From a virus (taxonomy: Duplodnaviria > Caudoviricetes), in IMG/VR virus record IMGVR_UViG_3300027819_000460, positions 1 through 42,493 of that record: a stretch of DNA of 42,493 bases. One strand, given 5' to 3'. The notes under the pieces are model-generated. The model had not been told where the DNA came from. It did not search any database and worked only from the letters and a program-made list of their open reading frames with translations. Positions 1 through 42,493 of the stretch are shown here, piece by piece. The translations under genes and the position numbers were made by a program. Position 1 is the stretch's first letter; each line of letters opens with the position of its first letter.

Positions 1-234
1 TCACAGTTTGATGAGTGTCGCCAGGGCGGTGACCGCGAGGGCAATCATGGCCCCCAATCGAACGGTCATGCGCAGCGACAAGCGGTCGAGCGCATTTTCC
101 AGATCAATCTTGGTCACCAGTTCGCCCATCACAAAATCCCTCGCAGCCTCCGCGTGTGCCTCGGCCTGCTCTATGGACACACCAGAATCTCGCAGGCGCT
201 TGGCATATCCCAGGGTATCGAATGCGTATGCCAT
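1..234 (-). CDS. DUF1640/CCDC90-like coiled-coil membrane-anchored protein
   Basis: AFDTLGYAKRLRDSGVSIEQAEA...LVTKIDL motif plus C-terminal hydrophobic helix. Confidence 0.8.
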   Translation of the reverse strand: MAYAFDTLGYAKRLRDSGVSIEQAEAHAEAARDFVMGELVTKIDLENALDRLSLRMTVRLGAMIALAVTALATLIKL

Positions 235-237
235 GGT

Positions 238-714
238 CTATGCCACCTGCCGGGTCGTACGACCACGGCCCTTGAGCGCGGCCGATCGGGACTGTTGGAG
301 CGTGCGAATCGGCTCATCCAGCTCTCCCTTAGTGATTGCCTCTCGCACTGCCGCGTAAAACGCGGACAGCTCGTCAGCCGTCCCAATGAAGTGACCTGTC
401 GCCCCGTTGAGGGGGATGGGGAGCTGGCCGTAGCGGATGCCCGTCCAGTATCCCTCGGGGGTTTTGGTAAACCAAGTGGACACCGCTTTGGCGCCTCCCT
501 TGGTTTTGGGGAGTGGTTGCCCATTCTCCACCAGGCCGAGGTATCGGGTCTGCTCGTCGAGCGCCTTCACGATAGCCTCCTTCGCAACTGCGAAGGGATC
601 TGTCACTTTCCCGCCTACCTTGGCGGGTGGCTCGCCCGATCTCTTGATGAGAGACATAAACGAGTACTGCATCTGCGGTGCCTCCGGTTCAGCAGCCTTT
701 GGGTTTCTAGCCAT
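238..714 (-). CDS. Hypothetical protein
   Basis: 158-aa ORF with GAGGAG Shine-Dalgarno upstream; stop 3 nt before the next gene. Confidence 0.75.
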   Translation of the reverse strand: MARNPKAAEPEAPQMQYSFMSLIKRSGEPPAKVGGKVTDPFAVAKEAIVKALDEQTRYLGLVENGQPLPKTKGGAKAVSTWFTKTPEGYWTGIRYGQLPIPLNGATGHFIGTADELSAFYAAVREAITKGELDEPIRTLQQSRSAALKGRGRTTRQVA

Positions 715-847
715 GACGCTACTCCTCTGCTGTACGTCTGAGGTTAGCTTACCATGTACGTCACTACAAAGGTCGTGACCGGAAGTCTCTGGGTGCTATG
801 AGTAATACGGTTGCTATGGGAATAGAATATATTCTGCTCAATTTTGC

Positions 848-2173
848 TTACAAATCGGTGCTAACCCGATACTCCCCATTGGTTCGAATAATCAGCCGGT
901 TCTTGACGAGGGTGGCGAGCGCCTGGCCGAAGCCCCCAGAAGTCGATGATAGGCCGGTCCTGATGGCAACCTGGGATCGTGTGAACGATAGCCCTGCCGA
1001 GGAGGCGAGGAACGCCAGTATCTTACCCTCAGCGCGGTTGCGCCCGAGTTTGTCGATCCACTCGTCGGCGCCATTGAACCCGGTCTGAGCGGTAGACGTA
1101 GTAGGTGCTCCACCCACTATGGCCCGAATGGCATCCAGTGCTCTGGAATGCTTGGCTGCCTCATCCCTTGCGGCCCGTATCTCGATGTCCTTGGCTACCA
1201 GCTTTGACTCGTATTCGTTGCGCAGTTCTATGATGCTCGTCTGTTCGACTGGTGCCTCGGCCTTTGCCGTAGGCCGTGCCGGTTCCTTGCGCTCTGGTGG
1301 AGGCGCGGACCTAAACGTCTCGATGAAGCTTTGGATGTCAGACTGTTCGAGCTTTGGCACCTGGAAATGATCCCCGATCTTCTCTCGGTCAGGGTGGAAC
1401 GTTTCGCGCTTCCTAATCTCGATGCGCTCGAATACGCCCATGAACTCAGGCGACCATATCCAGCCGTGGCCCTTGGGAAGCGAGGGTAGACTGGCCATGA
1501 ACTTCTGAAAGTCGCCCTCCGCTGACTGGGCCTCCACCCAATCGTGCAGCGCCTTGCGGTCTTGAGGGCTGGTGTTCTGAAACGCCAGGAGGGTGTCGAG
1601 CTGCGTCAGCACGTCCTTGTTAATCGTGGCTGCACGCTGGTTGAGCATGGTGACACCGATCCCTTTGTTTCGGCCCATAGTGACCAACGCTTCAACCGCT
1701 GCGAAGGTTTTTGCTTGAGCGCCCATGACCCGCTGCGGCACATACTCGTGTGCTTCTTCGATGAACACATGACGGGGCGTATTGTTGATGTTGAGCAGCT
1801 CTTCCGCGAATTCGGCGATCAGATGCCGGGCAGCAACCTTGGGCATGCCGAATGTCGAGATCACGCAGGATATGTTTTCCTTCACTACCGCCTGGGCGAT
1901 TTGTCGGCCCATCTCGCGATCGAGCGCGATGTCCGCGTGCTGCAAGCCAAATACGACGATGGGCAGACCTTTCCCCTTGCCATCCGCGGCCAGGCGCAAG
2001 CCCCACCAAACATCGATTGGGTCGAACACGACGAAGGGGATGCCAGCTTTGTAGAATTCCTCTGCCATGACGCCGCCCGTGTAGGTCTTGCCGGCCCCAC
2101 GCTTGGCGAGGATCGCGAAGGTCTTTGTTGCAGCATTGATTGGCAACGTGATTGATCCGAGATTTATGCTCAT
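848..2173 (-). CDS. HerA/FtsK-like ATPase (DUF87/DUF853-like) with C-terminal winged HTH
   Basis: Walker A AKRGAGKT, Walker B VFIEEAH, GRNKG motif, NQRAA sensor; C-terminal FTRSQVAIRTGLSSTSGGFGQALATL helix-turn-helix. Confidence 0.85.
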   Translation of the reverse strand: MSINLGSITLPINAATKTFAILAKRGAGKTYTGGVMAEEFYKAGIPFVVFDPIDVWWGLRLAADGKGKGLPIVVFGLQHADIALDREMGRQIAQAVVKENISCVISTFGMPKVAARHLIAEFAEELLNINNTPRHVFIEEAHEYVPQRVMGAQAKTFAAVEALVTMGRNKGIGVTMLNQRAATINKDVLTQLDTLLAFQNTSPQDRKALHDWVEAQSAEGDFQKFMASLPSLPKGHGWIWSPEFMGVFERIEIRKRETFHPDREKIGDHFQVPKLEQSDIQSFIETFRSAPPPERKEPARPTAKAEAPVEQTSIIELRNEYESKLVAKDIEIRAARDEAAKHSRALDAIRAIVGGAPTTSTAQTGFNGADEWIDKLGRNRAEGKILAFLASSAGLSFTRSQVAIRTGLSSTSGGFGQALATLVKNRLIIRTNGEYRVSTDL

Positions 2174-2575: not shown

Positions 2576-2761
2576 ATGACCAAGGAATTTGAAAATGCCT
2601 TGAACGAATACGGGGCAGCGATGGAGGAAAAGATCGCAGCATCCAAGGCAGAGGACAAAGCACGAGTTCGATCACAGAAAGCGTATCACCGTTTGGTGAT
2701 GGCAAAGCAGGAGTTACGGGCGGCAGAGTTAGAAGCACAAGAGCCAATCTACGTCAGCTAA
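2576..2761 (+). CDS. Hypothetical coiled-coil protein
   Basis: Tightly packed operon (TAACATG junctions). Confidence 0.65.
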   Translation: MTKEFENALNEYGAAMEEKIAASKAEDKARVRSQKAYHRLVMAKQELRAAELEAQEPIYVS

Positions 2762-2762
2762 C

Positions 2763-2981
2763 ATGAAAGCACCAATCTTCGGAAGGCCAGGTCTATCAGA
2801 GGAGAAGTTCCACCACGTGTTGGACACCTACCTTGAGACTGGTATCCTGCGAGCCGATGACTATGCTCTAATGAACAAAGACCAAGAGAACATCATCCGA
2901 GAAGTCAGAAAGAGTATCAAACGAATCACTACAAAAAATAAACAACAAATATATGAAAGCACCACGCCCAAAGGCATTTGA
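2763..2981 (+). CDS. Hypothetical phage protein
   Basis: Tightly packed operon, overlaps the next gene. Confidence 0.6.
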   Translation: MKAPIFGRPGLSEEKFHHVLDTYLETGILRADDYALMNKDQENIIREVRKSIKRITTKNKQQIYESTTPKGI

Positions 2982-3594
2982 CCCTGTACCAAAAGGCACA
3001 CATGTTGCGCGTCTCTATTCCATCATCCACCTAGGCACCACCAGTTTTATATACAAAGGCGAGGAGAAGTCCTCCAACAAAATCCGCCTTACCTTCGAGC
3101 TGTGCAATGAGCGCAAAGAGTTCAAGGAAGGTGAGGGTGAAAGGCCCTACTCCATCTCTCGTGAATTCGGGTGGAGCATGTCACCACGCGGAAAGCTCCG
3201 TCCCTTCATTGAGGGTATGATAGGCACCGCGCTTGATGACGACGAAGCCTACAACCTCGATATCGAGAGCTTGCTCGGGGAAGCCTGCCTGATAACCGTC
3301 ACCCATGAGGAAAAGAACGGGGCAACCTACGCCAACATCCTCAATGCGTCAGCTCTGCCAAAAGGCACCGAAGCACCCGACATGTTCAACGAAGGCAAGT
3401 TTATCAGCGTGGATAGCACGCCCGTTGAGGAAATCGAGGCACTTCCCGAGTTCTTGCGCGAGAAGATTTACGCCAGTGAGGAATGGGCACTCCGCATGCG
3501 AGCAATCCAACAGCTCGGCAACCTACCCGAAGTTAAGAAACCCAATGCTGATGAGGGAGAGGTAGCAGCAGAGGAATTGCCGGACATTCTCTAA
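2953..3594 (+). CDS. NGO0469-family phage replication protein / putative OB-fold ssDNA-binding protein
   Basis: HVARLYSIIHLGT...KIRLTFEL...ISREF..SM...KLR.FIE...LLGEACLITVTH...YANI pattern; acidic C-terminal tail (EELPDIL). Confidence 0.7.
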   Translation: MKAPRPKAFDPVPKGTHVARLYSIIHLGTTSFIYKGEEKSSNKIRLTFELCNERKEFKEGEGERPYSISREFGWSMSPRGKLRPFIEGMIGTALDDDEAYNLDIESLLGEACLITVTHEEKNGATYANILNASALPKGTEAPDMFNEGKFISVDSTPVEEIEALPEFLREKIYASEEWALRMRAIQQLGNLPEVKKPNADEGEVAAEELPDIL

Positions 3595-3597
3595 CTC

Positions 3598-3825
3598 ATG
3601 GAGATAGACCCCAAACTTATCCGCACCTACCGGCCAAAATTCCTTGAAGGGAAGGTGTTGTGGTCAGATAGTACGACGCCGAGGAAATGCCGGAAGTGTC
3701 CGCAAATCCTCCCACCGTATTACCGATACTACTGCTGCTATAAGTGCAAAGAAGCGGCCCAATTGGATGGGAGTTACGGGCATGAGGAAGACCCGCCGCC
3801 GCAGCCAGAGAGTGAGTTTGCGTAG
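3598..3825 (+). CDS. Small Zn-finger protein
   Basis: CRKC...YYCCYKC motif. Confidence 0.6.
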   Translation: MEIDPKLIRTYRPKFLEGKVLWSDSTTPRKCRKCPQILPPYYRYYCCYKCKEAAQLDGSYGHEEDPPPQPESEFA

Positions 3826-5733: not shown

Positions 5734-5943
5734 ATGGGAGAAGAATTGACCGTCGGTGAGGCGCGCGTGCGCACCACCTTCAATCCGAGTGCCAACGAAA
5801 TCGTGGATCAGCTCAAGCAAAAAAGTGCAGAGCTGATAAACATGTGCGAAGACCTAAAAGCCAAAGACCCACGCCTCGCATCTATTGCCCAAACCTCCTT
5901 CGAGGAAGCAGCGATGTGGGCTGTGAAGGCCGCTACCGCCTAG
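5734..5943 (+). CDS. Acb2/Tad1-like helical-hairpin protein (putative cyclic-nucleotide sponge)
   Basis: RVRTTFNPS...VDQLKQKSAELI...RLASIAQTSFEEAAMWAVKA resembles the Acb2/Tad1 R..S.A.T..EEA.MW..KA pattern. Confidence 0.65.
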   Translation: MGEELTVGEARVRTTFNPSANEIVDQLKQKSAELINMCEDLKAKDPRLASIAQTSFEEAAMWAVKAATA

Positions 5944-8113: not shown

Positions 8114-9541
8114 TTATTTAGTTAAATACTTTTTTAAAAACTTCTTATAACTTCCATTTTTGTGTGCTACCCACAAGTCTATTTTACCTTGCTCAAAGCA
8201 AGTGAGCATAAACCGTACCGACCGTTCTGGGTATTCAAGTATTTCTTCGACCGACGCAAAGGCTTTGCCCCTTCCAACGTGATAGTGGTCGTTGATTTGG
8301 CACAAGCCCCAATCAGTAGACCAAACCTTTCCGTTTGATACCTTATTCTCTAACTTCGCCTTTGTATTGAAGTTACTCTCTGCCTCTATAGTAGCGCATA
8401 TTTCTGCCTTCTCTGCCCATGAGAGGCCGTATTCATCACACAGCACGCGGATGGAGTGGATAATCTCTGCTCGGGTGCCCCATTTGTAATCTGATACGGC
8501 AGGTTTTGGCCCGTCAATCGGAACCTGGCTTTCTGGGTTGGGCGTCGTGTCGCTCGGCAGGATGTCGGACGGCGCTGTAGGTGCTGGGGGTGGCACAAGG
8601 GTTGGCTGCCATGGTTTAAGTGGCACCTGCGCTGTTTCACGCTGTTTCACGGCCTGTCTAGTGGTGAACAACGCCAGGAAGTCTGCAAAGAAGCGGGTCA
8701 AACCGAACCTGGACAGGACGTTGAACACGGTGACGGTGTCCGCTCGCTCCTCTGGCGTCACCTCGGCGCTCACATAGACCCGATATCCCCAATCAAAGAA
8801 CGCATAATCGCTTGACAATTTTTTAATAAAGTCATCTGTCGTGCCTACCTCAACGTAGTTATCGAAAACAAAGTACGCGGGTAGTGCGAACATCAACACC
8901 ACATGGTTAAAAGGTCGGTCGTCTCGCTTGTACTCCCCATTCTCAGGGAAGGGCCAGGCATACACAGCAACATCAAGGCAGCTCTTTTCCAGCGCTTTAG
9001 CAAAGTTACCATTAGACACCTGCTCGTAGTTGATTTGGAAGCGACGTGAAAACTCCGCTCCGAGGTCGCGCATTTGCTGGGTGATAGAGGTTGGGTCGAT
9101 GTAGGTAGCAAAGTTCATCCACTTCTCAGCAGGGAGCATTGGCTTTGGAATGAGGCCGTTGGCGCGTATCGCTTCCAAGGGAGCTTTGAGAGAGTTACCT
9201 TGGCGAGTTGTGCCGGAGTTGATGGCGATGTACCTGTCTGAAAAGTCTACCCGTCCGTCTTGGACGTACCCATTGGCTTCAAGCCATCGCTTACTCTCCG
9301 GCTTCATCAAGCCATTTTTGTATGCGTAAGAAAACTCTGCGGCAAGATAGTTGACCGGCCCCCGTGAAGCACAGTCGGCAAAGTCCTCCGACCCACGTTG
9401 TATCTCACCCATAGGTAGGTAGTTTTCACGCTCTGCCAGGGGGATCTCATAGAGGGAGGAAGGGGATTGCGACCCGAAAAGCCACTCCGACCCATCCTGC
9501 GCTGCTCGCTCCTTCTCGATGTTAAAGTTGTTGTAGGTCAT
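8114..9541 (-). CDS. Putative endolysin: papain-like (C1-type) peptidase fused to an SLT/lysozyme-like domain
   Basis: N-terminal Q..C (DCASRG), FSDRY, GN, NH, FDNY motifs; Pro-rich linker; C-terminal IEAESNFN...DWGLCQIN transglycosylase motif; start placed at the ATG after the holin stop (ORF track 9565). Confidence 0.75.
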   Translation of the reverse strand: MTYNNFNIEKERAAQDGSEWLFGSQSPSSLYEIPLAERENYLPMGEIQRGSEDFADCASRGPVNYLAAEFSYAYKNGLMKPESKRWLEANGYVQDGRVDFSDRYIAINSGTTRQGNSLKAPLEAIRANGLIPKPMLPAEKWMNFATYIDPTSITQQMRDLGAEFSRRFQINYEQVSNGNFAKALEKSCLDVAVYAWPFPENGEYKRDDRPFNHVVLMFALPAYFVFDNYVEVGTTDDFIKKLSSDYAFFDWGYRVYVSAEVTPEERADTVTVFNVLSRFGLTRFFADFLALFTTRQAVKQRETAQVPLKPWQPTLVPPPAPTAPSDILPSDTTPNPESQVPIDGPKPAVSDYKWGTRAEIIHSIRVLCDEYGLSWAEKAEICATIEAESNFNTKAKLENKVSNGKVWSTDWGLCQINDHYHVGRGKAFASVEEILEYPERSVRFMLTCFEQGKIDLWVAHKNGSYKKFLKKYLTK

Positions 9542-9542
9542 A

Positions 9543-9998
9543 TTAGCATCTGTTATTCTTATCAACTGTTAATTTGTCGAGAAGGTCTCTGATACGAACG
9601 AGGATAAAACGTACAGCATCAAACTCTACTACAGCAGAGCCAGTGCGGATGGTGTAGATATTCCCTATAACCGAGTAGCCTGTGGACGCTATCAAAAGGC
9701 CGAGACATCCAGTAGCTAGTGCTGTAAGGTCAACGCCCATTCCCTTTCCCATGTAGGCAATAATCAGTGGAATGACGATAAAGAGCATCTTTGAGACAAG
9801 ACCGTTGATAGCGTGGCGGGATTTTATGGCCTCGCCGCCTTGTAAGACGTATACCCTCCAAATCCCCGTAATCATGTCCAACACGATAAACGCAAATAGG
9901 ATGCTAAAGCTGTGCATCGACATACCCAGGAAGAAGGCCGGCACATACAGTGCATTTTTTATGATTGCCCATGTTGTTAATGTGCTTCCTTCTACCAT
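9543..9998 (-). CDS. Phage holin (Phage_holin_4_1-like)
   Basis: LDMITG...KS....NGL..K...GYSVIGN pattern; three TM segments. Confidence 0.8.
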   Translation of the reverse strand: MVEGSTLTTWAIIKNALYVPAFFLGMSMHSFSILFAFIVLDMITGIWRVYVLQGGEAIKSRHAINGLVSKMLFIVIPLIIAYMGKGMGVDLTALATGCLGLLIASTGYSVIGNIYTIRTGSAVVEFDAVRFILVRIRDLLDKLTVDKNNRC

Positions 9999-10433: not shown

Positions 10434-12947
10434 TTAATTTACCGTGGTCATCACTGATGTGAAGTCCGCACCAATGTCTGACGCGGCGTCGTATATGGTG
10501 GGAGCAATGGTATCGGTCGTGGTGGCGGTAAACATGGTAAAACCTGAAACTGAACATCTATCGCCACCAGTTGCACCTTGGCCTGGGGTCGCGTCGGTCG
10601 TTGTGGCTGCGAAAGTTCCGAGTTTGTATCCCATCCCCATTACAATGTCGTTTGCCGAGCTACAACCGCTTGATAGCGTTGCCATAAACCACATTTTAAC
10701 TACGTCACCCGCTACTATAGCGATAGGCGGATTTTGAGCTTTAGTGGTGCCTGTGTTGCGATAGTTTGCGCTGCTTGCAGCTCCTCCTCCTGTAATACAC
10801 GTCGTGCCGTTAGTCGTAAAACAAGTTGACTGAATTGTGTTAGAGAAGGTAGAAGTACCAGCCGCAGTGCTGGTTATGACACCTGTGTTGTTGATATTGA
10901 AGAGAGTTGTGGTCGCGGTTGCAGTAGAACTTGCTACGGCAAACAACGTCTTGTTCGTATTGCCATTGTTTGCATGGATAGAGAGTTTTGCGTAGGGAGT
11001 GGTGGTGCCTATACCAAAATTGCCTGTTTCGAGTAAGGTAACGAGGGTATTGTCAGCACCATCATATATATGGAAGTCGCCAGAGTTGTTAGCTGTAGCG
11101 GCGTCGTCGTCAAGGTGTATGTTTACGTCATCATTTCCACGTAGATTAAGTGTTTGGTCAGCAGCACCGTTGTGTCCACCATAAATATCTCCACCTTCAA
11201 CCCGTATGTCACCATTTACGTTTAGTTTCTGGTCTGGTGTAGTAGTGCCGATGCCGACATTTCCTCCTGATGTAATATTCATCCTTGCGGTGTTACTTGT
11301 ACCAAACTGGAGTCCGGCAGCGTCAAGCATGTGAATGAAGCCGTTTACACCGGCTCCTGCCGAGACATTCCCAAGAAGCATTCCTGTGTTAGAAGTGTTG
11401 TTTCTTGGAAACCAAATGCGACCCATAGAGCCTGCATCGTTTATGACGAGTCGAGCGACGGCGTTAGATGTTAAGTTTTGTACGTTGTTGATACCAACAT
11501 TGCCCGTGTTATCGATTGCAAAGAGCGTCGTGGTCGCAGTCGGTGTGGAAGACGCGATGACAAACAGGTTAGAGAGACTGCCTGTCGCGCCCGGTGGGGT
11601 TGCTACTGAGAGCATGGCGTATGGCGAGGTGGTGCCGATACCGACCTTGCCTCCAAAATACCCCGTTCCTGTCGTTGTGGATTGTCCTGTGACCGTTAAG
11701 CCATTTGGGTCAGCTTGAAGGACAGCGGTCGTTCCAGTTGGATAAAATATGAAGTTGCTTTGCGAGAGTTCTACCTGCCCTTCACCTCCATTTGCCACTT
11801 GCAGATATATGGAATTACCACTTGCTGCGTCCAAGTTTAACGAACCATTGCTCGTCACATCGTCACTAACTAAATTACCAGCAAAAGTAGTATTCCCCGC
11901 AAAGTAGTTAAGGTCAGTGGCACCCGCTTGGTAAATACCATAGCGGTTTGTGCCGCCGATGAGGTCATCTATGTACACACCGTATCGGTTGGTGAGTGTG
12001 CCTGTTGGTGTACCACCACGCACCCAAAGGCCATAGTTATTGGTCATGAGGTTCCCAGCACCAATAGTAGGCAGCTCAGCATGAAAGCTCGCACAGTCAG
12101 TTGAAGAAGCGAGAGTGCCGTTTACAGTACATAAGCCCGACAAAGCGGAGCTGAGGGCTAAGTTATATCCAACACTGTTATTGACCGCCTGATACCTGTT
12201 TCGTATTGGGCCTCCGTTGGCAGTAACACTGGTGAGGTTTCCTGTTGTGGACGCACCCATTATTGCGTTACCGTTAATACCTTGCGCAATTCCTCCTTGT
12301 GAACTTCCAGCACCGTTGTAGTAGGCACTGAAAGTACCCGCTCTAACGTTAGCCACGACGGACGAAGTACCAACATTCAAAACATCATTTTGAACTCCCT
12401 CCGCACCCGTAGTACCTACAAACGCTTTTCCTATAACCGTGGCGTTGTTATTACCCCTGCCGTTTACACCCGTTATCCATACGTTTCCGTCAACGACAGC
12501 TTTGAAGTTTGAGGAGGGGGTAGAGGTGCCTATGCCCACTTGTGAGGCGAAGTATGCATTTTCCGTCGTCGTCGCACCACCTGAAATTGTAAGACCCCCT
12601 GTCTGTGTACCGTTGCCGATGGTGGAGGAGGCTGCTGAAATGAGGCCGTTGGGATGCAGTGTGGTGATAGTGGTGGTTGGGGCAAGGTAGCCCTGGGCGT
12701 TAATTTCCCAACTCTTCCCAAATAACGCGTTAGAACATCCTACCGGTGTGACCCACCCACCAGAGAGAACACAGAGGATGCCTGTGGTCGATGTAGCTAG
12801 GCCGGGCACCAAAAGGCCAGCGGAGCTGTTCGTAGGCTGGATGATGTTCGTGCCGCCTGTTTTCCACTGTTGGAGCTGTTGAATCCCCTGGGCTGATGCA
12901 AGGGTCGGGAGGGCGAGTAATAGGGCTATGAGAATGAATTTACGCAT
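10434..12947 (-). CDS. Tail fibre / beta-strand repeat protein with N-terminal signal peptide
   Basis: Start MRKFILIALLLALPTLASA-Q; repeated GxVGIGTTxP motifs; Thr/Gly/Asn-rich. Confidence 0.75.
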   Translation of the reverse strand: MRKFILIALLLALPTLASAQGIQQLQQWKTGGTNIIQPTNSSAGLLVPGLATSTTGILCVLSGGWVTPVGCSNALFGKSWEINAQGYLAPTTTITTLHPNGLISAASSTIGNGTQTGGLTISGGATTTENAYFASQVGIGTSTPSSNFKAVVDGNVWITGVNGRGNNNATVIGKAFVGTTGAEGVQNDVLNVGTSSVVANVRAGTFSAYYNGAGSSQGGIAQGINGNAIMGASTTGNLTSVTANGGPIRNRYQAVNNSVGYNLALSSALSGLCTVNGTLASSTDCASFHAELPTIGAGNLMTNNYGLWVRGGTPTGTLTNRYGVYIDDLIGGTNRYGIYQAGATDLNYFAGNTTFAGNLVSDDVTSNGSLNLDAASGNSIYLQVANGGEGQVELSQSNFIFYPTGTTAVLQADPNGLTVTGQSTTTGTGYFGGKVGIGTTSPYAMLSVATPPGATGSLSNLFVIASSTPTATTTLFAIDNTGNVGINNVQNLTSNAVARLVINDAGSMGRIWFPRNNTSNTGMLLGNVSAGAGVNGFIHMLDAAGLQFGTSNTARMNITSGGNVGIGTTTPDQKLNVNGDIRVEGGDIYGGHNGAADQTLNLRGNDDVNIHLDDDAATANNSGDFHIYDGADNTLVTLLETGNFGIGTTTPYAKLSIHANNGNTNKTLFAVASSTATATTTLFNINNTGVITSTAAGTSTFSNTIQSTCFTTNGTTCITGGGAASSANYRNTGTTKAQNPPIAIVAGDVVKMWFMATLSSGCSSANDIVMGMGYKLGTFAATTTDATPGQGATGGDRCSVSGFTMFTATTTDTIAPTIYDAASDIGADFTSVMTTVN

Positions 12948-13800: not shown

Positions 13801-13830
13801 ATGGTAGACGGAGCAGGGGAATTGTAACGC
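13801..13830 (-). promoter_or_regulatory. Repeated late-promoter-like motif, copy 1
   Basis: GCGTTACA-N16-TACCAT-6nt-ATG(13794). Confidence 0.75.
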
Positions 13831-20717: not shown

Positions 20718-20719
20718 GG

Positions 20720-25403: not shown

Positions 25404-25404
25404 G

Positions 25405-27078: not shown

Positions 27079-27083
27079 GTGTA

Positions 27084-31813: not shown

Positions 31814-32035
31814 ATGCAGTATCTATCAGCAGTAGCTTTGATCCTCAACTTTGGCGGGACTGTTTTGGCAGCCACGGCGTTTGGAGAGCACGTTGGCGGG
31901 GGCTACGATAACAAGAATGGCAAACGCATATATCTCGCATCATTTTTGAGCCCATTTAGATTCTACTCAGGTATGACCCTATTGGGCGTCGGGTTCCTGT
32001 TACAGCTTCTATTGGAAATTATCCGAGTTCAGTAG
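31814..32035 (+). CDS. Small two-TM accessory membrane protein
   Basis: GGAGG SD; two hydrophobic helices, GFLLQL C-terminal motif. Confidence 0.65.
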   Translation: MQYLSAVALILNFGGTVLAATAFGEHVGGGYDNKNGKRIYLASFLSPFRFYSGMTLLGVGFLLQLLLEIIRVQ

Positions 32036-32497
32036 CTCGTGTTTCAATGCTACCTCCGCCAACATCCAATCCGACATGAACGTCCGTTGTGGGTGCCAGC
32101 TATCCTGTTCGCATCGGTCCCACAGGGCTACGCGGTCTTGCGGTAGCAGGGTGCGCACCACGGCGTCGTATTCGGCCTTGCGTTGGTTGCTGCCACAGGA
32201 TTTCCAAGCATGGCAGCTTCGGCAGACACAGACCACCAACCTGGTATCCGCGAACGTGGCTGAGTTTGCCCGGGTGATGAGGTGATCAGCCTGGAGGACA
32301 ACACCGGGGATATCCGGGAGCCCGTTGCAGCGGCGGACATCGCGGAGGATACATCCGCCGTCCCTGGCTATCACGATCGCGCGCAAAAGTGCCTGGATGC
32401 GTTCCTTGATCTCGGCAGTGTCAGAGTGACCGGCTACGCGGATTCGGGTCTTGGCTCGTAGTGGAGTGTGTCGAGGGAGAGGGCCGCCGCGTTTCAT
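32009..32497 (-). CDS. NinG-like HNH-fold nuclease
   Basis: IVIARDGGC...C...LQADHLITR...LVVCVCRSCH. Confidence 0.7.
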   Translation of the reverse strand: MKRGGPLPRHTPLRAKTRIRVAGHSDTAEIKERIQALLRAIVIARDGGCILRDVRRCNGLPDIPGVVLQADHLITRANSATFADTRLVVCVCRSCHAWKSCGSNQRKAEYDAVVRTLLPQDRVALWDRCEQDSWHPQRTFMSDWMLAEVALKHELLNSDNFQ

Positions 32498-32978: not shown

Positions 32979-33698
32979 CTAGTGGATGCTTTCGCAAACT
33001 CCGTCGATAATCCGATGAAGGGTTGGCGTGGCCGTGGGCTTCTCCATGACCTTGCCATTGAGGGCGAAGGTCACAGCGTTGAACAAGCGCCAGGCGTTCC
33101 GTTCGTCGAGGTCGGGGAAGGACGGTCTGTCCCATTCCGCCAGAACGTCGGGGACGCGCTGGATGTTGATGACACCCTCCCGGTAGAGCTGGAGGATGGC
33201 ATGGTCGGCTTGGCCATCGGTCAGCATCGTGCCCTGGTAGCGTTGCAGGGTGCGGTGCTGCTGTTCCCGATGCAGTGCCAGCGGCTCGATGAGTTCGCCG
33301 ACGATGCCGGGAAGATCCCGCTTCAAGTTGGCCGTGTGCCGGCGCTTGATAACCTGGTCGGCCATGAAAGCCATGTTGTCGCAGACGAACACCCGCGAAC
33401 CGAAGCCAATCCCAACCGGAAAACTCCGGTCGTGCGAATTGCGTATGCCAACGGTATCCTCGTAACCTGTGTAGGTGCTCCGCAGGGAGAGAAGGCCGAA
33501 GTAGCGTTGGCCATCTGGCGTCACTCCATGATGCTCGTCCGTCACCTCATGCCCGTACATCGTCAACGTCCCTTTGATGAGGTCGATGATGCGGAAGTGG
33601 GGTATCGGGATGTGGGTTGAGGTTGCGTCAGGGGTTTCGAGCTGGCGCAGACCGTCATAGTCAACGGTGTCAGCTCCAGCGTGAAGCATGAGTGTCAT
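32979..33698 (-). CDS. DUF932 domain protein
   Basis: THIPIPH...RYFGLL...GIRNSHD....GSRVFVCDNMAF...RRHT...NAWRLFNAVT. Confidence 0.85.
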   Translation of the reverse strand: MTLMLHAGADTVDYDGLRQLETPDATSTHIPIPHFRIIDLIKGTLTMYGHEVTDEHHGVTPDGQRYFGLLSLRSTYTGYEDTVGIRNSHDRSFPVGIGFGSRVFVCDNMAFMADQVIKRRHTANLKRDLPGIVGELIEPLALHREQQHRTLQRYQGTMLTDGQADHAILQLYREGVINIQRVPDVLAEWDRPSFPDLDERNAWRLFNAVTFALNGKVMEKPTATPTLHRIIDGVCESIH

Positions 33699-33743: not shown

Positions 33744-34079
33744 TCAATCAAAGCTGCGCCAATGCCCACGGCCCTTGCGCACTCGTCTCTCTCGCTTGAT
33801 GCGCTGCGTCGAGTAACCTTGGGCGATAAGCTCCCGCCGTATCACGTCATGACAAACGCCGATTTCCTCTTGAATGTAGGAAAACGTGCGGCCCTTCTTC
33901 CGCATTTCGATAACCACCTTCATTTCGTTCGGGTAGAGCGTCATGCGCTTGGCTTCCTGTGCTGCCGCGAGTTTGCGGCGGTGCTCTGTCCACCTTGCGT
34001 CATTGGCGATATAGGCGAGCTGCGCTGCCGATAGCTTGGCGCGCTGCTCTGTGCTCATTGGTGCTCGGGTTCCACTCAT
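33744..34079 (-). CDS. NUMOD3-like repeat plus HTH DNA-binding protein
   Basis: STEQRAKLSAAQ / TEHRRKLAAAQ repeats; C-terminal GRTFSYIQEEIGVCHDVIRREL HTH; CAGGAG SD. Confidence 0.6.
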   Translation of the reverse strand: MSGTRAPMSTEQRAKLSAAQLAYIANDARWTEHRRKLAAAQEAKRMTLYPNEMKVVIEMRKKGRTFSYIQEEIGVCHDVIRRELIAQGYSTQRIKRERRVRKGRGHWRSFD

Positions 34080-34197
34080 CACGGACTGCTCCTGTGTTCT
34101 GTCCGAGAGTGATTTTACCATGTGGTCGCTATGGTGCACCTTGGTGATATTGGTGGTTTATCTTTGTGCCACTACATAAAAGGGTGGAGATATACCA

Positions 34198-35034
34198 ATG
34201 GCATACACATTCATTCGCACCCGCAAGTCGGGCCGCAGATACAAATATGTGCAGGAAAGCTACCGAGAGGGTGGGAAGGTGAAGACGCGCTACCTATCCT
34301 GCACGCCGCTAGACCCGCCGATACCCAAACGTCCTAGGAAGGGAAAAATCGACTGGGCTGGCACGGTCAAAGGGGTAGTCTCTATGGGCGTCACCGCAGC
34401 TCTGGGGAAGCTCGGGCCACCTGGTGGTCTCTCGCACAAGAATAATCGATACCGGCCAGTCGATCCCCGGACATTTGAAAAAATGACAGATAAAGAGCGC
34501 CAGATGGAATTGCTGCGTGCTCGTATAGCGCGGGAAGATGATGAGCGGCGAGCAGAGGCGCGCCAATACAACACTCCTGCCGCGAAAGAATGGAAAATCT
34601 GGTTTGCTGAACAGGAACGCGCAGAGCTGACAGCGTCGCGGGAACGGGAAACCAAAGCATTCGCCGAATGGCAAGAACACCAGAAAGGTTATTTCAAATG
34701 GGACGGCACGATTTACTCAAACCGTGAAGACGCTCAAAAAGCTCTTGCCGGTTACGTTGAAAGTCTCAGCCGGCAGGCATACTACAACCATGTTTACGGT
34801 CCTGGGCCAGACGACCATGCTTTGGTCACACAGGAATACACTGATTCGGAAAAGCAAGAGCGTTCCGAACATGCCAAAGCTTATCAAACCAGCCTCCACA
34901 ACCTGAATGCCGACATCGCACAGGCCACACCATCGCCTGATACCGCCCCTGATACCGCTCCCGATGCTGGGGACAGTTCTGCCGGTGAAGGACAGGATGG
35001 TCAAGGAGACGGTAAAGGTGACGGGGCGCCATAA
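34198..35034 (+). CDS. Hypothetical protein
   Basis: N-terminal GRRYKYVQESYREGGKVKTRYL beta domain (IS1634-N/DUF4277-like); acidic low-complexity tail with PDTA repeats. Confidence 0.65.
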   Translation: MAYTFIRTRKSGRRYKYVQESYREGGKVKTRYLSCTPLDPPIPKRPRKGKIDWAGTVKGVVSMGVTAALGKLGPPGGLSHKNNRYRPVDPRTFEKMTDKERQMELLRARIAREDDERRAEARQYNTPAAKEWKIWFAEQERAELTASRERETKAFAEWQEHQKGYFKWDGTIYSNREDAQKALAGYVESLSRQAYYNHVYGPGPDDHALVTQEYTDSEKQERSEHAKAYQTSLHNLNADIAQATPSPDTAPDTAPDAGDSSAGEGQDGQGDGKGDGAP

Positions 35035-35080
35035 GGGAGACCACCCGGACGATCAATTTTTCACCTGTTGATGATGGTTC

Positions 35081-35827
35081 CTAGAGATTTTGCTTCCGTA
35101 GCTCCATAAGGAGCTCCCGCACACCCAGCAGCATGAATCTCTCTTGAAAGACGTATTGAAAAATATGAAGGCTCGTGGCACCAACCTGCGCGGTTGATTT
35201 CAGTCCCATAGCGAGTGTCAGGTCATCGTCATGAAGGTAAAGGTGTTGCAATTGCGTTTGGTCAGTATCCCGCTGCATTGTCATACTGGCCGTGACGCCC
35301 AATACATTTGGATGGGCTCCGAAGTTTATAGAACGTTCATACAATTGTTCGTACACTTCGCCAAGACGCGCTTCCGCTCCTGCAACAGTCTTTTGCACAT
35401 CAATGGCACGAAATGCCCTTCTAACAGCCTTCAACGAAGCTGCATCCTCATTGCGATTAAGCCAGGTTTCGCCCAAAGCTGGATTCTTGAAGATGTGTAG
35501 GCCATATGCCGCGTACTCGAGGCAAGATCTCAAGAGAACAAATGTCTCTGCCACTTGACCGGACATACAAAGGCCACAGGAACCTCGATATGCAGCATGC
35601 GATCGGAAAAGCATATTTGCACCCAGTATACTCTTCGGGTTAACGAGGTTATTGCCAATTCTACAAAAGGCGTCGTCGATGTCGGACAGCAATTTGTATT
35701 CGGGCTTCTTAAGTGCAAAGGTCGAAGCCTGATTTGATCCAGCCATCTTAAGGAACGCTGACAGCCCGTCAGTGCCCCATCCAGGTGGCTTGCTTTGGTT
35801 CGATGAGGTCTTCGATGCTTCACTCAC
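35081..35827 (-). CDS. DUF5677-like helical accessory protein
   Basis: LLRSCLE...YERS...GAHPN pattern; GGAG SD; AT-richer than its neighbours. Confidence 0.65.
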   Translation of the reverse strand: MSEASKTSSNQSKPPGWGTDGLSAFLKMAGSNQASTFALKKPEYKLLSDIDDAFCRIGNNLVNPKSILGANMLFRSHAAYRGSCGLCMSGQVAETFVLLRSCLEYAAYGLHIFKNPALGETWLNRNEDAASLKAVRRAFRAIDVQKTVAGAEARLGEVYEQLYERSINFGAHPNVLGVTASMTMQRDTDQTQLQHLYLHDDDLTLAMGLKSTAQVGATSLHIFQYVFQERFMLLGVRELLMELRKQNL

Positions 35828-37425: not shown

Positions 37426-38208
37426 CTAGATAAGCAACTCCAACTCTGTGCACTTGTTGGTCTTCATCAGTGCCGTGATGGCACAGAGGCACAGGGTTGT
37501 GAGGGGATGCAGGACGACCAGCACGTTGGTCATGCCCGACGCTGTAGCGTTCACCAGCTCCACAGGGTCATTGACGATGTAGAGCGTCCCTTCCCCGACC
37601 ATGTGCGGGTTGAGGAAGTAGGGAACTTTGAAGTCCTTGGGGAACTGAAGCCGAGGCTCCTCTCCTTTGAGGGCGATGCCGACAAAGGCTTCGATGACGC
37701 CGCTCTGCCCGTGGACAGGGAGCACCAGGCGCGCTCGGTTCAGACCCTTGCTGCTATACCCACCACCCAGCTCCTTGATGGCACCTTGGTCGAAGTCGGC
37801 AAGGGCGTCGTGGTAGGGGTCAAGGGTCTGCTGATAGGCGAGCGGGTCAAAGCCGGACGACTTGGACTGAGGGGCGGGCTCCTGCTGCTCCGAAGGCTTG
37901 TCGGCGGGTTTGCCCGCACCTTGGAACTGCGCGGCAATCTGTCCCGCAGCATCCTTGGCGGGGATCTTCCTCAATCGCGCGACCAGCTCGATGCAATCGC
38001 CGCCCTGCTTTGGTAGCTTTTTGCACTCGGCGCAAAAGCAGATGAATGCGTTTTTTGCCGGCGTGACGATGAACGGCGCACGCCCTGCGACCACACCCGA
38101 TATCGGGCAATGCCCGCGTAGCTGTTCGCCATCTTCTCGTAGGGTGATACCCAACCACGACAATACGTCAGTGATTGGAGTTTTTTTGATTTGAGCGAAG
38201 TCTAGCAC
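37426..38208 (-). CDS. CHC2 zinc-finger, DnaG-primase-like protein (degenerate TOPRIM)
   Basis: PITDVLSWLGI...LRGHCP...F.VTPAKNAFICFC..C...GGDCIELVA; GAGGAG SD before GTG. Confidence 0.8.
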   Translation of the reverse strand: MLDFAQIKKTPITDVLSWLGITLREDGEQLRGHCPISGVVAGRAPFIVTPAKNAFICFCAECKKLPKQGGDCIELVARLRKIPAKDAAGQIAAQFQGAGKPADKPSEQQEPAPQSKSSGFDPLAYQQTLDPYHDALADFDQGAIKELGGGYSSKGLNRARLVLPVHGQSGVIEAFVGIALKGEEPRLQFPKDFKVPYFLNPHMVGEGTLYIVNDPVELVNATASGMTNVLVVLHPLTTLCLCAITALMKTNKCTELELLI

Positions 38209-38244: not shown

Positions 38245-39210
38245 TCAGGCGGTCAAAATGTTGATTGGCTCCTTCACCGCCCGTAGCCAGGGCGTATCAC
38301 CAAAATCTAACGTCGGCTTCTCTATCGAAGGTCTGCGGCCGAATGACGGGTCATGCTTGAATAGGTTGTAGTTATTCCCCTTTCCGTCCGTAATATTGGT
38401 GAGGGATTTGATGATGGTCTGCATGTGGGGTTCTTGTGTGGTGACATGCAGGCACAACACCCCGCCTTTCTCGATACCGAGGAAGTCCTTGTATATGCCC
38501 TGCTGTATCATCTCTCGGTATTGCAGGAGTTTCCTGCGGTAGCTTTTGACCTTGAGGCTCTTGAGGTCCACACCCTCGGTATCGCGGTCAGCCTCCAGGA
38601 AGAAGTAGCGCCGGCCGCCGTTTGGCCACTCAACTGCAAACACCGAATCGGGACGCAGAGGGCCGCTGTAGTACTCTCCATCCACCGTGATAGGCACGTC
38701 GATAGACAGGGGCCGAGTGCCGAGAATCTTTCGACGGGACAGGAAGGTCAGGCCCGCCTTGCGGCACGCAAGTTCGATAGAGGCAGTGATGCAGGCAATC
38801 ATATACTCGTGCCAGAAGTCCTCTATCTCGTGCCAGGCGTTTGCGGGTCTGGGGTCTACCCGACCGGCCGCTTCCAGGAAGCGCCACGCACGCACCGTGT
38901 TGGCGTAGACAATGGGCTGGTTTTTCCAGCTATCTGTCTCACGCTGCTGCCAGGGCTTGTAGACGTATTGCCCGCCCAACGGGGCGGTGGCCTCGTTGTA
39001 GAAGTCGCACATGCGCTTGACGAGGCTCTCGCTGCTCTTGAGGCCCGGCTGCATCAACAGGAACAGCCACTCGTTTGACAGGGGGCCGTGGTCGTCCAGG
39101 TGCTGGAATACGTCTAAGCCCGTATCACCTGGATAAATCCGCTTGCCGGTGCTCTGTGGCTCGGCAAAGCGGTATCTGCGATTAAGTGCGTCTCGGCGCT
39201 CTGTGCTCAT
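38245..39210 (-). CDS. Replication-relaxation family protein
   Basis: N-terminal wHTH-like region, FWHEY, LRPDSVFAV...YFFLEADRDTE, KLLQY...LHVTT. Confidence 0.85.
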   Translation of the reverse strand: MSTERRDALNRRYRFAEPQSTGKRIYPGDTGLDVFQHLDDHGPLSNEWLFLLMQPGLKSSESLVKRMCDFYNEATAPLGGQYVYKPWQQRETDSWKNQPIVYANTVRAWRFLEAAGRVDPRPANAWHEIEDFWHEYMIACITASIELACRKAGLTFLSRRKILGTRPLSIDVPITVDGEYYSGPLRPDSVFAVEWPNGGRRYFFLEADRDTEGVDLKSLKVKSYRRKLLQYREMIQQGIYKDFLGIEKGGVLCLHVTTQEPHMQTIIKSLTNITDGKGNNYNLFKHDPSFGRRPSIEKPTLDFGDTPWLRAVKEPINILTA

Positions 39211-39331
39211 ATGTCATTGAATGAAAACCTATAATGCCCGTGTCAAAGGTTGCCTTGGGGCATCTCTGGGTGTGGCGGCGTGTGGTTGGGGGCAGCGGGT
39301 AGCGCAATAATTCTACCATGCCCCTGCATTT

Positions 39332-41674
39332 TTAATGTGGTGAGATGTCCACGTCGTCGGGGTCGTTCGGTGGCTTGCGGGTTGGGGTCTTTGGTCGGGT
39401 CGTTATCGCCTTGGATGGAGGCGCATCTGAAGGTGGGGTGGCGTCAGGAAGGATAATTGCCTCACCCTCGATGGTGCGGTTTTCGTCAGGGTCAACACAA
39501 TATGCTTTGCGCATGGTGGCTTTGAGCTTGTCCAATTCCTGGTCGGTGGCCCTAGGCATCCTTTCCATCACACCGCCTTGCACCTTGACCACGAACGGCT
39601 TGTTGTTGTTTTGGTCGCGGACGTTGGCCAGGAACGACCCCACAGGCAGCTTGACATCGTCCGGCTTATCAGCCCGCAAGCGCTTCGCGAATACGTCCGC
39701 CTCGTCGTCTACATTAGCAAGCTTGATACCGACGTTAGACAGGGCGGCTAGGACGGGGTCGGTGATCTGCGTTAGCCGCTGATGCGAGGCGATAATCCCG
39801 ACGTGTTGTTTCCGGCATTGCTCAATTAGTTTGGTGATGTTGGGGTCTTTTGCTATGTAATCCTGGCATTCGTCGATATACACAAAAGTCGGTATGCGAT
39901 CATCCTTTTTAAGGAAAGTACGCTCCTGCGCTGCTCTCAGTACCATAGCGATAAATAGCCTGCCGAATATCTCACATTGGTCCGGCCCTAACATAAACAA
40001 ATTCGTATGAATCACTACTACCTTCGACGATTGCAGCTCTTCATATAAATCGAGTTTGCACTCCTCTGCCGCGACCATATCGGCGATAGACCGATTGGTG
40101 AGCAAGTTTTCCATTCTCCAACCTACTTCCCCGCGACGGGTAATGAAGTCCGTACGGTCGAAATACTCAATGAAGAACTTAAGCACAGGTCCACTGAAGT
40201 GGTTGGCATGTTGCCGCCACTTCCCCTTTTCCGATACTAGTAGGTCTTTAAGCGTCTCTAGTGTGGCGTTTGGCATTTCCATACAGGCTCGAACAGCCAT
40301 TCTGAATACGAGACGCTGCATCGAGGTAAGGTCGGTTTCCAACAAACCCGCAAATATATACTCGAACATCGCAATTGTCGCGTTGTTGGCAGCCTCCTGT
40401 TGGTTTTGGTCGTAGGATTTCCTGCGATCGCGACCCATTGCAAACAGGTTCAGGGCCAGAGGATAGACGACGTCAGGCTCAATGTAGATCAGTTTCCCAG
40501 CCAAGGGTTGGCCATCCGCGAATACCTTGAGATTGATGATGTTCCCAATGAGGTCCATCTCCGAGTTCATGACCACGATGGAGCCAGCGTTCTGTGCTAC
40601 CAAATCGAGGTCTGCTGCTATCATCGCTTGCATGGCTTGTGTCTTACCACGCCTGGGTGGTGCGACGATGTGTATTCCGGTGAAGCGAGTCTCATGGTCT
40701 ATAGAGTAGGGTACTTCCTTCACGAAAATCTTTAGTAAGTCTGTGTTTGTGAGCCACTCACGTATTGCCGTTTCCGGTGTGCCGGGATGCTCGTCGAGAA
40801 AAATAAACTGCGATTGTCCCTTCGTTTCCCGAAGGGAAATTGCATTGCGGTTGGTAGTTAGAGTTGCGCGTAAACTCGCGAACGCTCCCAAGTCGAAGGC
40901 AGATTGAGAGGTTGCCGACATATCTAGTAGCCTAGCTACTACCATTCGTGATTGGGGGTTTGCAGTAGCCCATGAGGTGCGAAACGGCCCCTCTGTATTT
41001 TCGCGCACACTGAGGTCAAGAAATGCGCAAGCTTGGGGTATCATGTCGGCGTAGAACTTGCGTATCTTCGCGATCTTGTCGCGCGCCTCCTGGTTTTGTT
41101 TGTGATTTGCTGCTCGATCTGCTGGATGTTCATCAAAGTAACTTCGGCTTTGCTTTAACAGCAGTTCTCGTGCTGCTATCTCTTGTTCTAGTTGTTGGAT
41201 ATCCCGAGCCCGTGCATCAGAAAATATCTTGGTAATTAGCTTGGCGTTGTCGGTCTGCGGTTCAAATTCTGGTATGACCGCGGGAATTTCGGCAACTGGC
41301 TCGGAGCCGTAGTTCACCATTTTGTCGTGGAGTACCCCAATCAAATGCCCAGCAATGCTATATAGGGCAAACACGGTAACGACGGTGCTCACTCCAAGAG
41401 CTGCCCAGAGTAGCAAGCTCGGCTGAGGGGTCATCTCATATAGGGCCAACAGTGCGATCTCAGGGATGATTGCCCAGAGAAAGAACCGGGTGGCAAACTG
41501 CACGTCGCCGAGGTTCCTGCGAAACGCCTTCCAAAGTGTCAGGTCTCCATTGGCAGCAGTCGGCCTGCTTCGGAGATAGTTTGTTGTGACAGACCAGGCT
41601 ACGAGACCACTGACAATGGCGATGGCACCAAGCACGACGGTAAGTGCCGCTGTGGCAATGTTGAAACTTTCCAT
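39332..41674 (-). CDS. VirD4/TraD-like type IV coupling ATPase
   Basis: Three N-terminal TMs; HIVAPPRRGKT Walker A; LNLF; VYIDECQDY Walker B; RKQHVGIIASHQRLTQI; GGGAGG SD. Confidence 0.85.
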   Translation of the reverse strand: MESFNIATAALTVVLGAIAIVSGLVAWSVTTNYLRSRPTAANGDLTLWKAFRRNLGDVQFATRFFLWAIIPEIALLALYEMTPQPSLLLWAALGVSTVVTVFALYSIAGHLIGVLHDKMVNYGSEPVAEIPAVIPEFEPQTDNAKLITKIFSDARARDIQQLEQEIAARELLLKQSRSYFDEHPADRAANHKQNQEARDKIAKIRKFYADMIPQACAFLDLSVRENTEGPFRTSWATANPQSRMVVARLLDMSATSQSAFDLGAFASLRATLTTNRNAISLRETKGQSQFIFLDEHPGTPETAIREWLTNTDLLKIFVKEVPYSIDHETRFTGIHIVAPPRRGKTQAMQAMIAADLDLVAQNAGSIVVMNSEMDLIGNIINLKVFADGQPLAGKLIYIEPDVVYPLALNLFAMGRDRRKSYDQNQQEAANNATIAMFEYIFAGLLETDLTSMQRLVFRMAVRACMEMPNATLETLKDLLVSEKGKWRQHANHFSGPVLKFFIEYFDRTDFITRRGEVGWRMENLLTNRSIADMVAAEECKLDLYEELQSSKVVVIHTNLFMLGPDQCEIFGRLFIAMVLRAAQERTFLKKDDRIPTFVYIDECQDYIAKDPNITKLIEQCRKQHVGIIASHQRLTQITDPVLAALSNVGIKLANVDDEADVFAKRLRADKPDDVKLPVGSFLANVRDQNNNKPFVVKVQGGVMERMPRATDQELDKLKATMRKAYCVDPDENRTIEGEAIILPDATPPSDAPPSKAITTRPKTPTRKPPNDPDDVDISPH

Positions 41675-41722
41675 CCTCCCTTTTCCTCCTCGCAAAAGCG
41701 TGACGGTTCGGCAGCGAGGGAG

Positions 41723-42493
41723 TCAATAGCCTTGTGCCTCCTCCACGAACTTGTTGAAACTGTTGTCCTCCCGTGTGGGGTCTGGGTGCAGCCCAGCATG
41801 CTTGGCCAACAGCACCGCGTCGTCGTAGAGCGCTCCCTCCACAACCTTGTCACCGATAAGGAGCACGGCACGCTGTAGAAGCTTGGGTAACTCATCCAGG
41901 AAGCGAGTCGCAGCAATGAGACGATTTTCCCGGATCAAGGACACATGGCTGTCTCTTAGATAAAAGCCACCATCCGGCAGCACGATTTGTCCTAGATAAT
42001 GTCCGATAAGGAACTGTCCTATAGCCAGAGCGTCGAAGTCGCCCAGCTCAGCCCTATTCACCCTCGCAAGGATGACAGAACGGGGGTTGAAGGAAAAGTT
42101 GGTGGGCTTGCAGAGCATCCCCTTAAGGACAGGGGAGCGCATGATGCGCTGGGTTTTCCCGTAGGCCCAGACGTGCCCGGTGGTGCTTTTTCTATCGGGA
42201 GGGGGAATGAGGGTGTCGAGTGATTGTGGCCCCTCAGCCAACCTCTCACCGATAAAATCCAAGCCGGTGTCCTTCGTGAGCGTTCCATCGCCTCGGGGAA
42301 ACAGCGTATCAAATACCTCAACAATCGTGCATAATTTTCGGTAATTGAGATTTTGTAGAGGGTTGAAGGAGTGCTGGGTGGGGTCAAAAATCCTCGCCCT
42401 CGGAATGTCGGGCACCTCGTCCGATATGTAGAGGAAGCCTCCTTTCGGAAATTCAATCTGTGTTTGCGTGCCTATGTAAATTCGGTTTTGCAT
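41723..42493 (-). CDS. Degenerate coupling-protein-like hypothetical protein
   Basis: FDPTQHSFNPL motif shared with T4CPs, but no Walker A/B motifs. Confidence 0.6.
   Translation of the reverse strand: MQNRIYIGTQTQIEFPKGGFLYISDEVPDIPRARIFDPTQHSFNPLQNLNYRKLCTIVEVFDTLFPRGDGTLTKDTGLDFIGERLAEGPQSLDTLIPPPDRKSTTGHVWAYGKTQRIMRSPVLKGMLCKPTNFSFNPRSVILARVNRAELGDFDALAIGQFLIGHYLGQIVLPDGGFYLRDSHVSLIRENRLIAATRFLDELPKLLQRAVLLIGDKVVEGALYDDAVLLAKHAGLHPDPTREDNSFNKFVEEAQGY

Follow-up and report, generated by a model that had tools for sequence, protein, structure and literature searches.

A tailed phage joined to a mobilization arm, from a family resident in Alphaproteobacteria and with a possible second host among Patescibacteria epibionts

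The window, by which we mean the whole 42,493-bp stretch analysed here, is one virus contig (IMG/VR record IMGVR_UViG_3300027819_000460) on which the virion, lysis and early genes of a tailed phage, here called the body, lie next to a block of predicted mobilization genes, here called the arm. It is a near-complete temperate tailed phage, one element and not a chimera, and the fusion of a phage with an integrative mobilizable element (IME) is secure, being real, single and family-wide, with relatives that include G001 (in a Rhodospirillales metagenome-assembled genome, MAG), G002 (in a Pseudolabrys MAG) and G004. The arm holds the following features, SD standing for Shine-Dalgarno.

32979..33698, minus strand, DUF932 protein (the slot is occupied by ArdC in G001, G002 and G004)
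33744..35827, SD-led variable arm/cargo genes (33744 minus, 34198 plus, 35081 minus)
37426..38208, minus strand, CHC2 zinc-finger protein (match to the zinc finger only)
38245..39210, minus strand, leaderless relaxase-like nuclease of PF13814 (Replic_Relax, MOB_C-type; 26.6 bits)
about 39332..41695, minus strand, VirD4-like coupling ATPase of 787 aa, of the Patescibacteria/monoderm kind
41723..42493, minus strand, conserved protein of the arm, lying between the integrase and the coupling protein

The body holds these.

2576..3825, plus strand, early genes lacking an SD, one of them for a replication protein of the NGO0469 family (2953-3594; NF046043, E 2e-47)
8114..9565, minus strand, lysin (weak lysozyme match)
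9543..9998, minus strand, holin (profile matches)
10434..12947, minus strand, Thr/Ser-rich GIGT-repeat fibre-like protein with an N-terminal hydrophobic, signal-like segment
12940..15613, minus strand, conserved virion-associated genes (those at 14425 and 14921 begin with hydrophobic segments)
13801..13830, minus strand, family-specific leaderless-promoter-like motif C-GTTACA-N16-TANNNT-N6-ATG
13842..14369, plus strand, SD-led insert inside the virion-associated block
15626..16933, minus strand, major capsid protein with an insertion in its HK97 fold (best Foldseek matches CUS-3, Sf6 and P22)
16959..17825, minus strand, likely scaffold protein
about 18699..20723, minus strand, portal (weak match to SU10_portal PF23899, and synteny)
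21404..23095, minus strand, large terminase, TerL (PHROG 38, E 6e-28; PHROG 24361)
24075..28397, minus strand, two likely ejection proteins and a protein in the tail-needle/fibre position (27084-28397, signal-like N-terminus), in an inferred P22-like order
29165..31758, minus strand, likely nozzle (629 aa) and adaptor (conserved at 54-76% in relatives)

A first-pass annotation of the window had claimed a near-complete virion and lysis set, and this holds, with TerL, portal, capsid, holin and lysin all recovered by profile or fold; it had also described all genes as co-oriented, which is wrong for 2576-3825 and 5734-6163, both on the plus strand. An HK97-fold capsid, a terminase and a portal (the portal match is weak and backed by synteny) are the marks of Caudoviricetes, the adaptor, nozzle and ejection proteins being named from position and size and the scaffold from position and acidic composition. 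Neither capsid nor nozzle, nor the coupling protein of the arm, has any sequence match in 50,697 phage records. Judged by substitution rates the virion genes are intact and under strong purifying selection, with a pS for TerL, portal, capsid and nozzle of 0.63-0.80, near saturation, against a pN of 0.15-0.26 (adaptor rows of G004 and of the metagenome contigs L182 and L189, which have mis-called frames, were left out). The products of 10434-12947, 14425-14841, 14921-15613 and 27084-28397 start with hydrophobic or signal-like segments, as they do in close relatives and in the armless G710, G711 and G721; virions assembled in the cytoplasm do not usually have such starts, which may reflect membrane-linked assembly or a lipid layer.

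The three arm genes singled out at first pass are likewise borne out, the relaxase by a PF13814 match over the cut-off, the coupling ATPase by two N-terminal hydrophobic segments and Walker A/B motifs as expected of the VirD4 type, and the CHC2 gene by a match just under the cut-off. The window's ATPase has no Pfam match of its own, its orthologue in G001 matches PF10412 and PF12696, and in G001 the slot of the 41723 protein is filled by a second, Patescibacteria-like VirD4 ATPase. In the relaxase alignment H134, P187-D188 and E206 are invariant and D208-R209 near-invariant; the model has a predicted local distance difference test score (pLDDT) of 92.5, and Foldseek gives only weak matches, to XisH, FokI and BspD6I (E 0.01-0.07). 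MOB_C relaxases are described as related to PD-(D/E)XK nucleases (PMC12857230, cited, as is every paper here, for the sections of it that were covered). Searches of PDB sequences with the relaxase profile and the coupling protein gave no matches, nor did the relaxase as a single query against viral contigs. As had been claimed, mating-pair genes are lacking, none being found among 60 open reading frames of the window with Pfam and PHROGs or among 37 with NCBIfam, and the element is therefore a phage-IME fusion and not the hybrid with an integrative conjugative element (ICE) that had been proposed. Of the hallmarks of an IME, the relaxase lies in the window, and integrase and att repeats were found outside it, in the relatives G001, G002 and G019.

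It could be argued that the PF13814 nuclease, the ATPase and the CHC2 protein serve only the replication and excision of the element, with no cell-to-cell transfer, given that Pfam calls the family replication-relaxation, that the weak fold matches are of restriction-endonuclease type and that no origin of transfer (oriT) was found. We consider this very improbable, for PF13814 has been read as MOB_C and is paired with VirD4 in streptococcal IMEs (PMC5357655), a membrane-anchored ATPase and ArdC fit transfer, and the phage bodies have replication genes of their own.

The first base of the window lies in a stop codon and the last in a start codon, and the window must therefore have been cut gene-to-gene out of a longer contig as a gene-trimmed provirus. 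Identical DNA is found on the contigs L164 (165,876 bp) and L165 (52,434 bp), whose coordinates extend ~129 kb and ~9 kb, respectively, past its left end. Depth across the window is flat at 32-37x with minor local bumps, a single unitig spans 1790-32194, and shorter pieces overlap over 32-38 kb. That the window is nonetheless chimeric in its assembly, or that two independent elements lie side by side in it, would fit the several breaks at 32.2-37.9 kb in the Logan contigs, none of which bridges the junction, and the runs X1 and X2, which may be the source of the window, probably being a single data set. Against this stand the flat depth, the 30-base overlaps and the finding of one att-bounded unit with the same gene order in independent genomes, and at the level of the family a chimera is refuted by G001, G002, G004, L182 and L189; it is scarcely credible, and the single element claimed at first pass is upheld.

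The integrase and att sites that the first-pass annotation wanted sought are found in relatives, as a tyrosine integrase and repeats at tRNA genes, and neither lies inside the window, where tRNA, tmRNA and Rfam scans also returned zero matches. In relatives the integrase sits just beyond the orthologue of the 41723 gene, and since the orthologue of 238-714 in G001 is 130 bp from the att repeat, the window probably stops just short of the left att. The G001 unit is 42.5 kb long with 52% GC in flanks of 70% GC and lies between 52-bp repeats of the end of a tRNA-Thr gene; that of G002 measures 42.9 kb between imperfect 32-bp tRNA-Thr repeats; and G019, which has a different, sipho-like body, measures 47.5 kb with 63-bp tRNA-Leu repeats. 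The tyrosine integrase lies directly upstream of the arm in G001, G002 and G004, and the layout in relatives runs integrase, VirD4-like ATPase, PF13814/MOB_C-type relaxase, CHC2, DUF932 or ArdC and then the virion genes, an order that the metagenome contigs L182 and L189 keep. The family is thus shown, through these relatives, to be site-specifically resident at tRNA genes of alphaproteobacterial chromosomes. Extrachromosomal lysogeny with a plasmid replicon, the mark of a phage-plasmid, is not what is found, the relatives being integrated at tRNA genes.

A quick tree built from 77 terminase rows gives a clade (support 99) in which the window belongs and which consists of six arm-bearing members and one uninformative contig, so that the arm is present in 6/6 members with an informative flank, and element length across the clade is constant at 42-44 kb. 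The relaxase was found 14-17 kb upstream of the terminase and on the same strand in three of the five genomes examined, the other two, both Nitrobacter, having a broken terminase alone. Altogether three Nitrobacter genomes (L006, L009 and L011) carry an isolated, broken terminase of the clade, with no other window gene nearby in the two that were examined. A terminase of the clade is also present in an isolate, Bradyrhizobium sp. R2.2-H.

The arm, judged by its genes, is an IME module that has been joined to many phages. It occurs on at least 5 other head modules, namely G609 (distant, podo-like), G019 and G731 (sipho-like), G730/G230, G732/G059 and L105, and among 20 stretches fetched at relaxase matches 4 have virion genes known to the query set and 16 do not, several of them being located at tRNA-Gly or tRNA-Phe. 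Among 32 viral records the relaxase is present in all four that a relaxase search had picked out and in none of the 28 that a terminase search had, five of these being circular relatives with terminal repeats. Divergence is far greater among arm proteins than among virion proteins (relaxase identity 18-35% against 74-78% for TerL), and the arm proteins of the window's clade are not monophyletic, being mixed in the tree with phage-free elements, from which it follows that arms are exchanged; the coupling-protein tree is a quick one with only 2 canonical coupling proteins, which sit on long branches, and the deep split in it lacks support (57).

The same divergence and mixing would be expected if alphaproteobacterial IMEs repeatedly took injected genomes of Patescibacteria phages as cargo and mobilized them, the phage genes then decaying at a dead end, and decayed copies do exist in G169 and, reduced to TerL, in Nitrobacter JJSN and TKz-YC01. 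Such capture is improbable, since the arm sits at the same place in every informative member of a clade whose length stays at 42-44 kb, and the virion genes are intact and under purifying selection.

Arms without phages have features of their own. A phage-free arm element of 30.6 kb lies at tRNA-Phe in an 8.2-Mb chromosome (G125:C1:7257182-7287809; L245, L246) and carries what by eye is defence cargo, a methylase and a nucleotidyltransferase-like protein, together with one 847-aa signal-peptide protein in the style of the phage bodies. Tandem arm elements, two or three per site, are found at G230:C56:39001-99000 and in G051:C1, G170:C1 and G006:C2, which suggests that such sites are accretion hotspots. 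The coupling-protein family is also found on a Methylomagnum plasmid, pRS11DPr5 (L301), and a Sulfitobacter plasmid (L300), both typed as non-mobilizable, and relaxases of this family may escape mobility (MOB) typing.

The two gene styles described at first pass are present. At curated starts in the window an SD motif precedes 0/33 core genes against 10/14 arm/cargo genes (background 8.9%, Fisher p 2e-7), the two classes having been assigned with knowledge of the claimed split, and in eight relatives, with starts placed by homology and uncertain ones dropped, the counts are 1/66 and 16/32 (p 9e-9). The CHC2 gene is SD-led in 9/9 elements and the integrase in 3/4; exceptions in the window are the relaxase and DUF932 genes, which lack the motif despite their place in the arm. 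Temperate phages tend to mirror the start signals of their hosts (10.1101/2021.04.21.440840), and an anti-SD has been detected in only 48% of Parcubacteria (PMC9297842). The promoter-like motif, further copies of which precede 31758, 28397 and 20717, reads as a leaderless promoter ahead of late genes. One more copy, at 18359 (18337-18366), is not followed by ATG and may be the promoter of a leader or small RNA ahead of 17967-18287.

Several affinities of the body and arm are with Patescibacteria. For the SSB of the G002 element the top score is 160 bits among 61 genomes of Patescibacteria, against 93 among 61 of Alphaproteobacteria and 100 in the PDB (G649, marked unpublished, enters only this tally), and Patescibacteria account for 5/10 of the organism-named matches of the fibre protein, Alphaproteobacteria for 0/10; in an atlas search every score of the fibre protein was below 0.9, with no taxon signal. 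The arm coupling-protein profile gives 111-180 bits at 17/17 Patescibacteria loci, of which the 12 best were chosen as query matches, a choice that tells against the comparison, and less than 9 bits at 13/13 canonical alphaproteobacterial VirD4/TraG/TrwB loci. The coupling protein of the window has a homologue in 79/81 Patescibacteria genomes against 8/251 Alphaproteobacteria, where the top ones are arm orthologues, and it matched only 11 of 72,556 plasmids. A distant family member occurs in the MAG nzgw467, on short contigs with no relaxase, and this MAG is listed among Patescibacteria MAGs with Paceibacteria prophages (PMC12455944).

We propose, with a probability of about one half, a two-host phage that is lysogenic in Alphaproteobacteria and lytic in epibionts of the Paceibacteria type of Patescibacteria, the observed grounds for this being the single unit, the tRNA residence of its relatives, the selected virion genes, the split start signals and the Patescibacteria-type coupling protein. 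Virions would infect the epibiont and grow lytically there, the leaderless relaxase would nick a predicted oriT, and the DNA would cross between attached cells by way of the epibiont's type IV secretion system (T4SS), used as a borrowed channel. The SD-led integrase and CHC2 protein, with ArdC or DUF932, would then establish the element in the alphaproteobacterial cell, and excision and transfer into a later epibiont would restart the SD-free lytic programme, either direction of crossing being hypothetical. Movement between a cell of the candidate phyla radiation (CPR) and its host, as was first suggested, is plausible.

A number of results weigh against a Patescibacteria host. The closest terminases, at 68-79%, are named Pseudolabrys, Xanthobacteraceae, Bradyrhizobium, Nitrobacter and Rhodospirillales, and the closest coupling proteins are also proteobacterial. 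The Parcubacteria-like character that the first-pass annotation gave to the core is matched by several Patescibacteria affinities in the body and opposed by closest named terminase relatives that are all alphaproteobacterial prophages. The search for syntenic elements that this annotation had called for is similarly one-sided, with close relatives resident in Alphaproteobacteria and none integrated in a Patescibacteria chromosome among 301 genomes searched. The relaxase profile hits 31/301 genomes of the family of G002 (Xanthobacteraceae) against 4/301 Patescibacteria, weakly, and the capsid profile reaches 4/301 Patescibacteria genomes and these distantly, on short phage-only contigs, in one chromosomal remnant of 25% identity and in one weak match. 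The full-length fibre protein has no match in 101 genomes of either Patescibacteria or Alphaproteobacteria, no non-coding block that might be an oriT is shared between arms, and no pairing of an alphaproteobacterium with a Paceibacteria epibiont was found. The bins that hold distant relatives belong to many taxa (Pelagibacter, Thermoplasmatales, Gammaproteobacteria), bin labels therefore being weak. A start-agnostic SD test gave mixed results for stretches from Patescibacteria and did not work on the flanks of G001 itself, being too noisy where GC is high. Relaxases lack an SD motif in 14/14 phage-linked copies and also in 19/20 phage-free ones (3 partial matches skipped), so that leaderless genes work in alphaproteobacterial elements. 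The SD-less relaxase had been considered as a sign of expression in CPR cells and was dropped, as these phage-free copies make it unspecific, and the promoter motif was rejected as a Patescibacteria host promoter, being found in 0/121 Patescibacteria genomes.

In a 1.2-Mb Patescibacteria chromosome (G507:C1:718500-725700; L223, L224) a small group of genes for capsid and scaffold and for adaptor- and nozzle-like proteins, with no terminase, lies amid housekeeping genes, and we take it for a remnant or domesticated module.

Much of the contrary evidence would be accommodated by the chief rival reading, a host switch, in which a body of Patescibacteria-phage descent now passes its whole cycle in Alphaproteobacteria through leaderless and coupled translation, the arm being a lysogeny module that hitchhikes on conjugative systems of the host. 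It explains all the alphaproteobacterial links, every named close terminase relative included, and agrees with a phage-specific leaderless promoter ahead of late genes, with the leaderless relaxases of phage-free elements and with the lack of a close relative integrated in CPR. We think it possible and yet rather unlikely, because a near-total absence of SD motifs has been maintained over a saturated synonymous distance with neighbouring arm genes retaining theirs, the coupling protein is unlike canonical proteobacterial ones, and the same arm has repeatedly been fused to bodies of one style. Nor was a spanin found, a crude lipobox scan giving no candidate in 5/6 elements scanned and none near the lysin and holin at 8114-9998.

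The two-host reading extends tentatively, at a little short of an even bet, to several unrelated Patescibacteria phage lineages, each of which may have acquired the same alphaproteobacterial arm, may hide as prophages in the chromosome of the parasitized cell and may cross via the T4SS of the parasite. If a two-host cycle is true, the lysogen carries a weapon against its epibiont, each prophage names an alphaproteobacterial host for uncultured Paceibacteria and marks by sequence which Alphaproteobacteria carry such epibionts, and there would be a way for Patescibacteria and the cells they live on to exchange DNA as well as a substrate for those Patescibacteria T4SS that have no relaxase. What is observed is already unusual, a stable and repeatedly evolved fusion of tailed phages with a relaxase and coupling protein of their own, and the terminase in Bradyrhizobium sp. 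R2.2-H would allow a test in culture, provided that the copy there is intact.

The remaining features of the window are these.

1..234, minus strand, small coiled-coil/membrane protein at the left end (from its translation), presumably DUF1640-like
238..714, minus strand, SD-led gene
848..2173, minus strand, HerA-like ATPase with a C-terminal extension (PF05872, PF01935)
5734..5943, plus strand, Acb2/Tad1-type anti-defence protein (PF24729, E 2.5e-12)
32009..32497, minus strand, HNH nuclease (weak PHROG matches)

A 24-nt inverted repeat (96%; 5692-5715 and 6173-6196) brackets the Acb2/Tad1 gene and its neighbour and is absent in the 7 relatives checked; it includes GTTCTTTGAAAA, which we take to be boxA-like. 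From 6160 to 8110 there is a region of ~1.9 kb with no convincing long gene and no Rfam match, in which a cysteine-rich short frame, a TATAAT-rich patch at ~7560 and a terminator-like hairpin at ~7650 can be seen.

No description of a phage combined with a relaxase and coupling protein in this way was found in the literature searched, subscription papers and supplements being outside its scope. The nearest arm is that of streptococcal IMEs of class 8 (PMC5357655), which likewise combine integrase, coupling protein and MOB_C relaxase compactly and with no mating-pair genes; here the integrase is a tyrosine and not a serine one, the targets are alphaproteobacterial tRNA genes, and a full phage body is attached. 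Patescibacteria themselves have T4SS and VirD4-like proteins of the same kind, MOB_C being the commonest of their rare relaxases (58/109), but these are chromosomal and mostly lack a relaxase, and the word phage has 0 occurrences in the sections of that paper that were covered (PMC12102498). Phage-plasmids and ICE-mobilized prophages are also hybrids of a phage with another mobile element, and the part covered of a 2025 review states that integrated prophages have not been found to be conjugative and that ICEs may mobilize prophages (PMC12282955), whereas here the phage encodes a relaxase and coupling protein itself. As for two hosts, separate phages of an epibiont and of its host have been reported (10.1101/2024.03.08.584096), and phages co-targeted by CPR and non-CPR spacers share a predicted host range of two groups (PMC10746230), but those are phages of Saccharibacteria, Gracilibacteria and Absconditabacteria known from spacers, with no arm in the sections covered. 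Prophage Xhp1 of Schaalia odontolytica similarly resides in the host cell and interacts with a CPR epibiont; it is a phage of that host and infects TM7x to a limited extent, whereas the body described here looks adapted to the epibiont and carries a relaxase arm (PMC13578794). Finally, in its virion the element resembles the P22-, Sf6- and CUS-3-like podophages, with an HK97 capsid bearing an insertion, the order portal, scaffold, capsid and the order adaptor, nozzle, and differs from them in capsid and nozzle sequences unmatched in the phage records and in the signal-like starts of its tail-position proteins.

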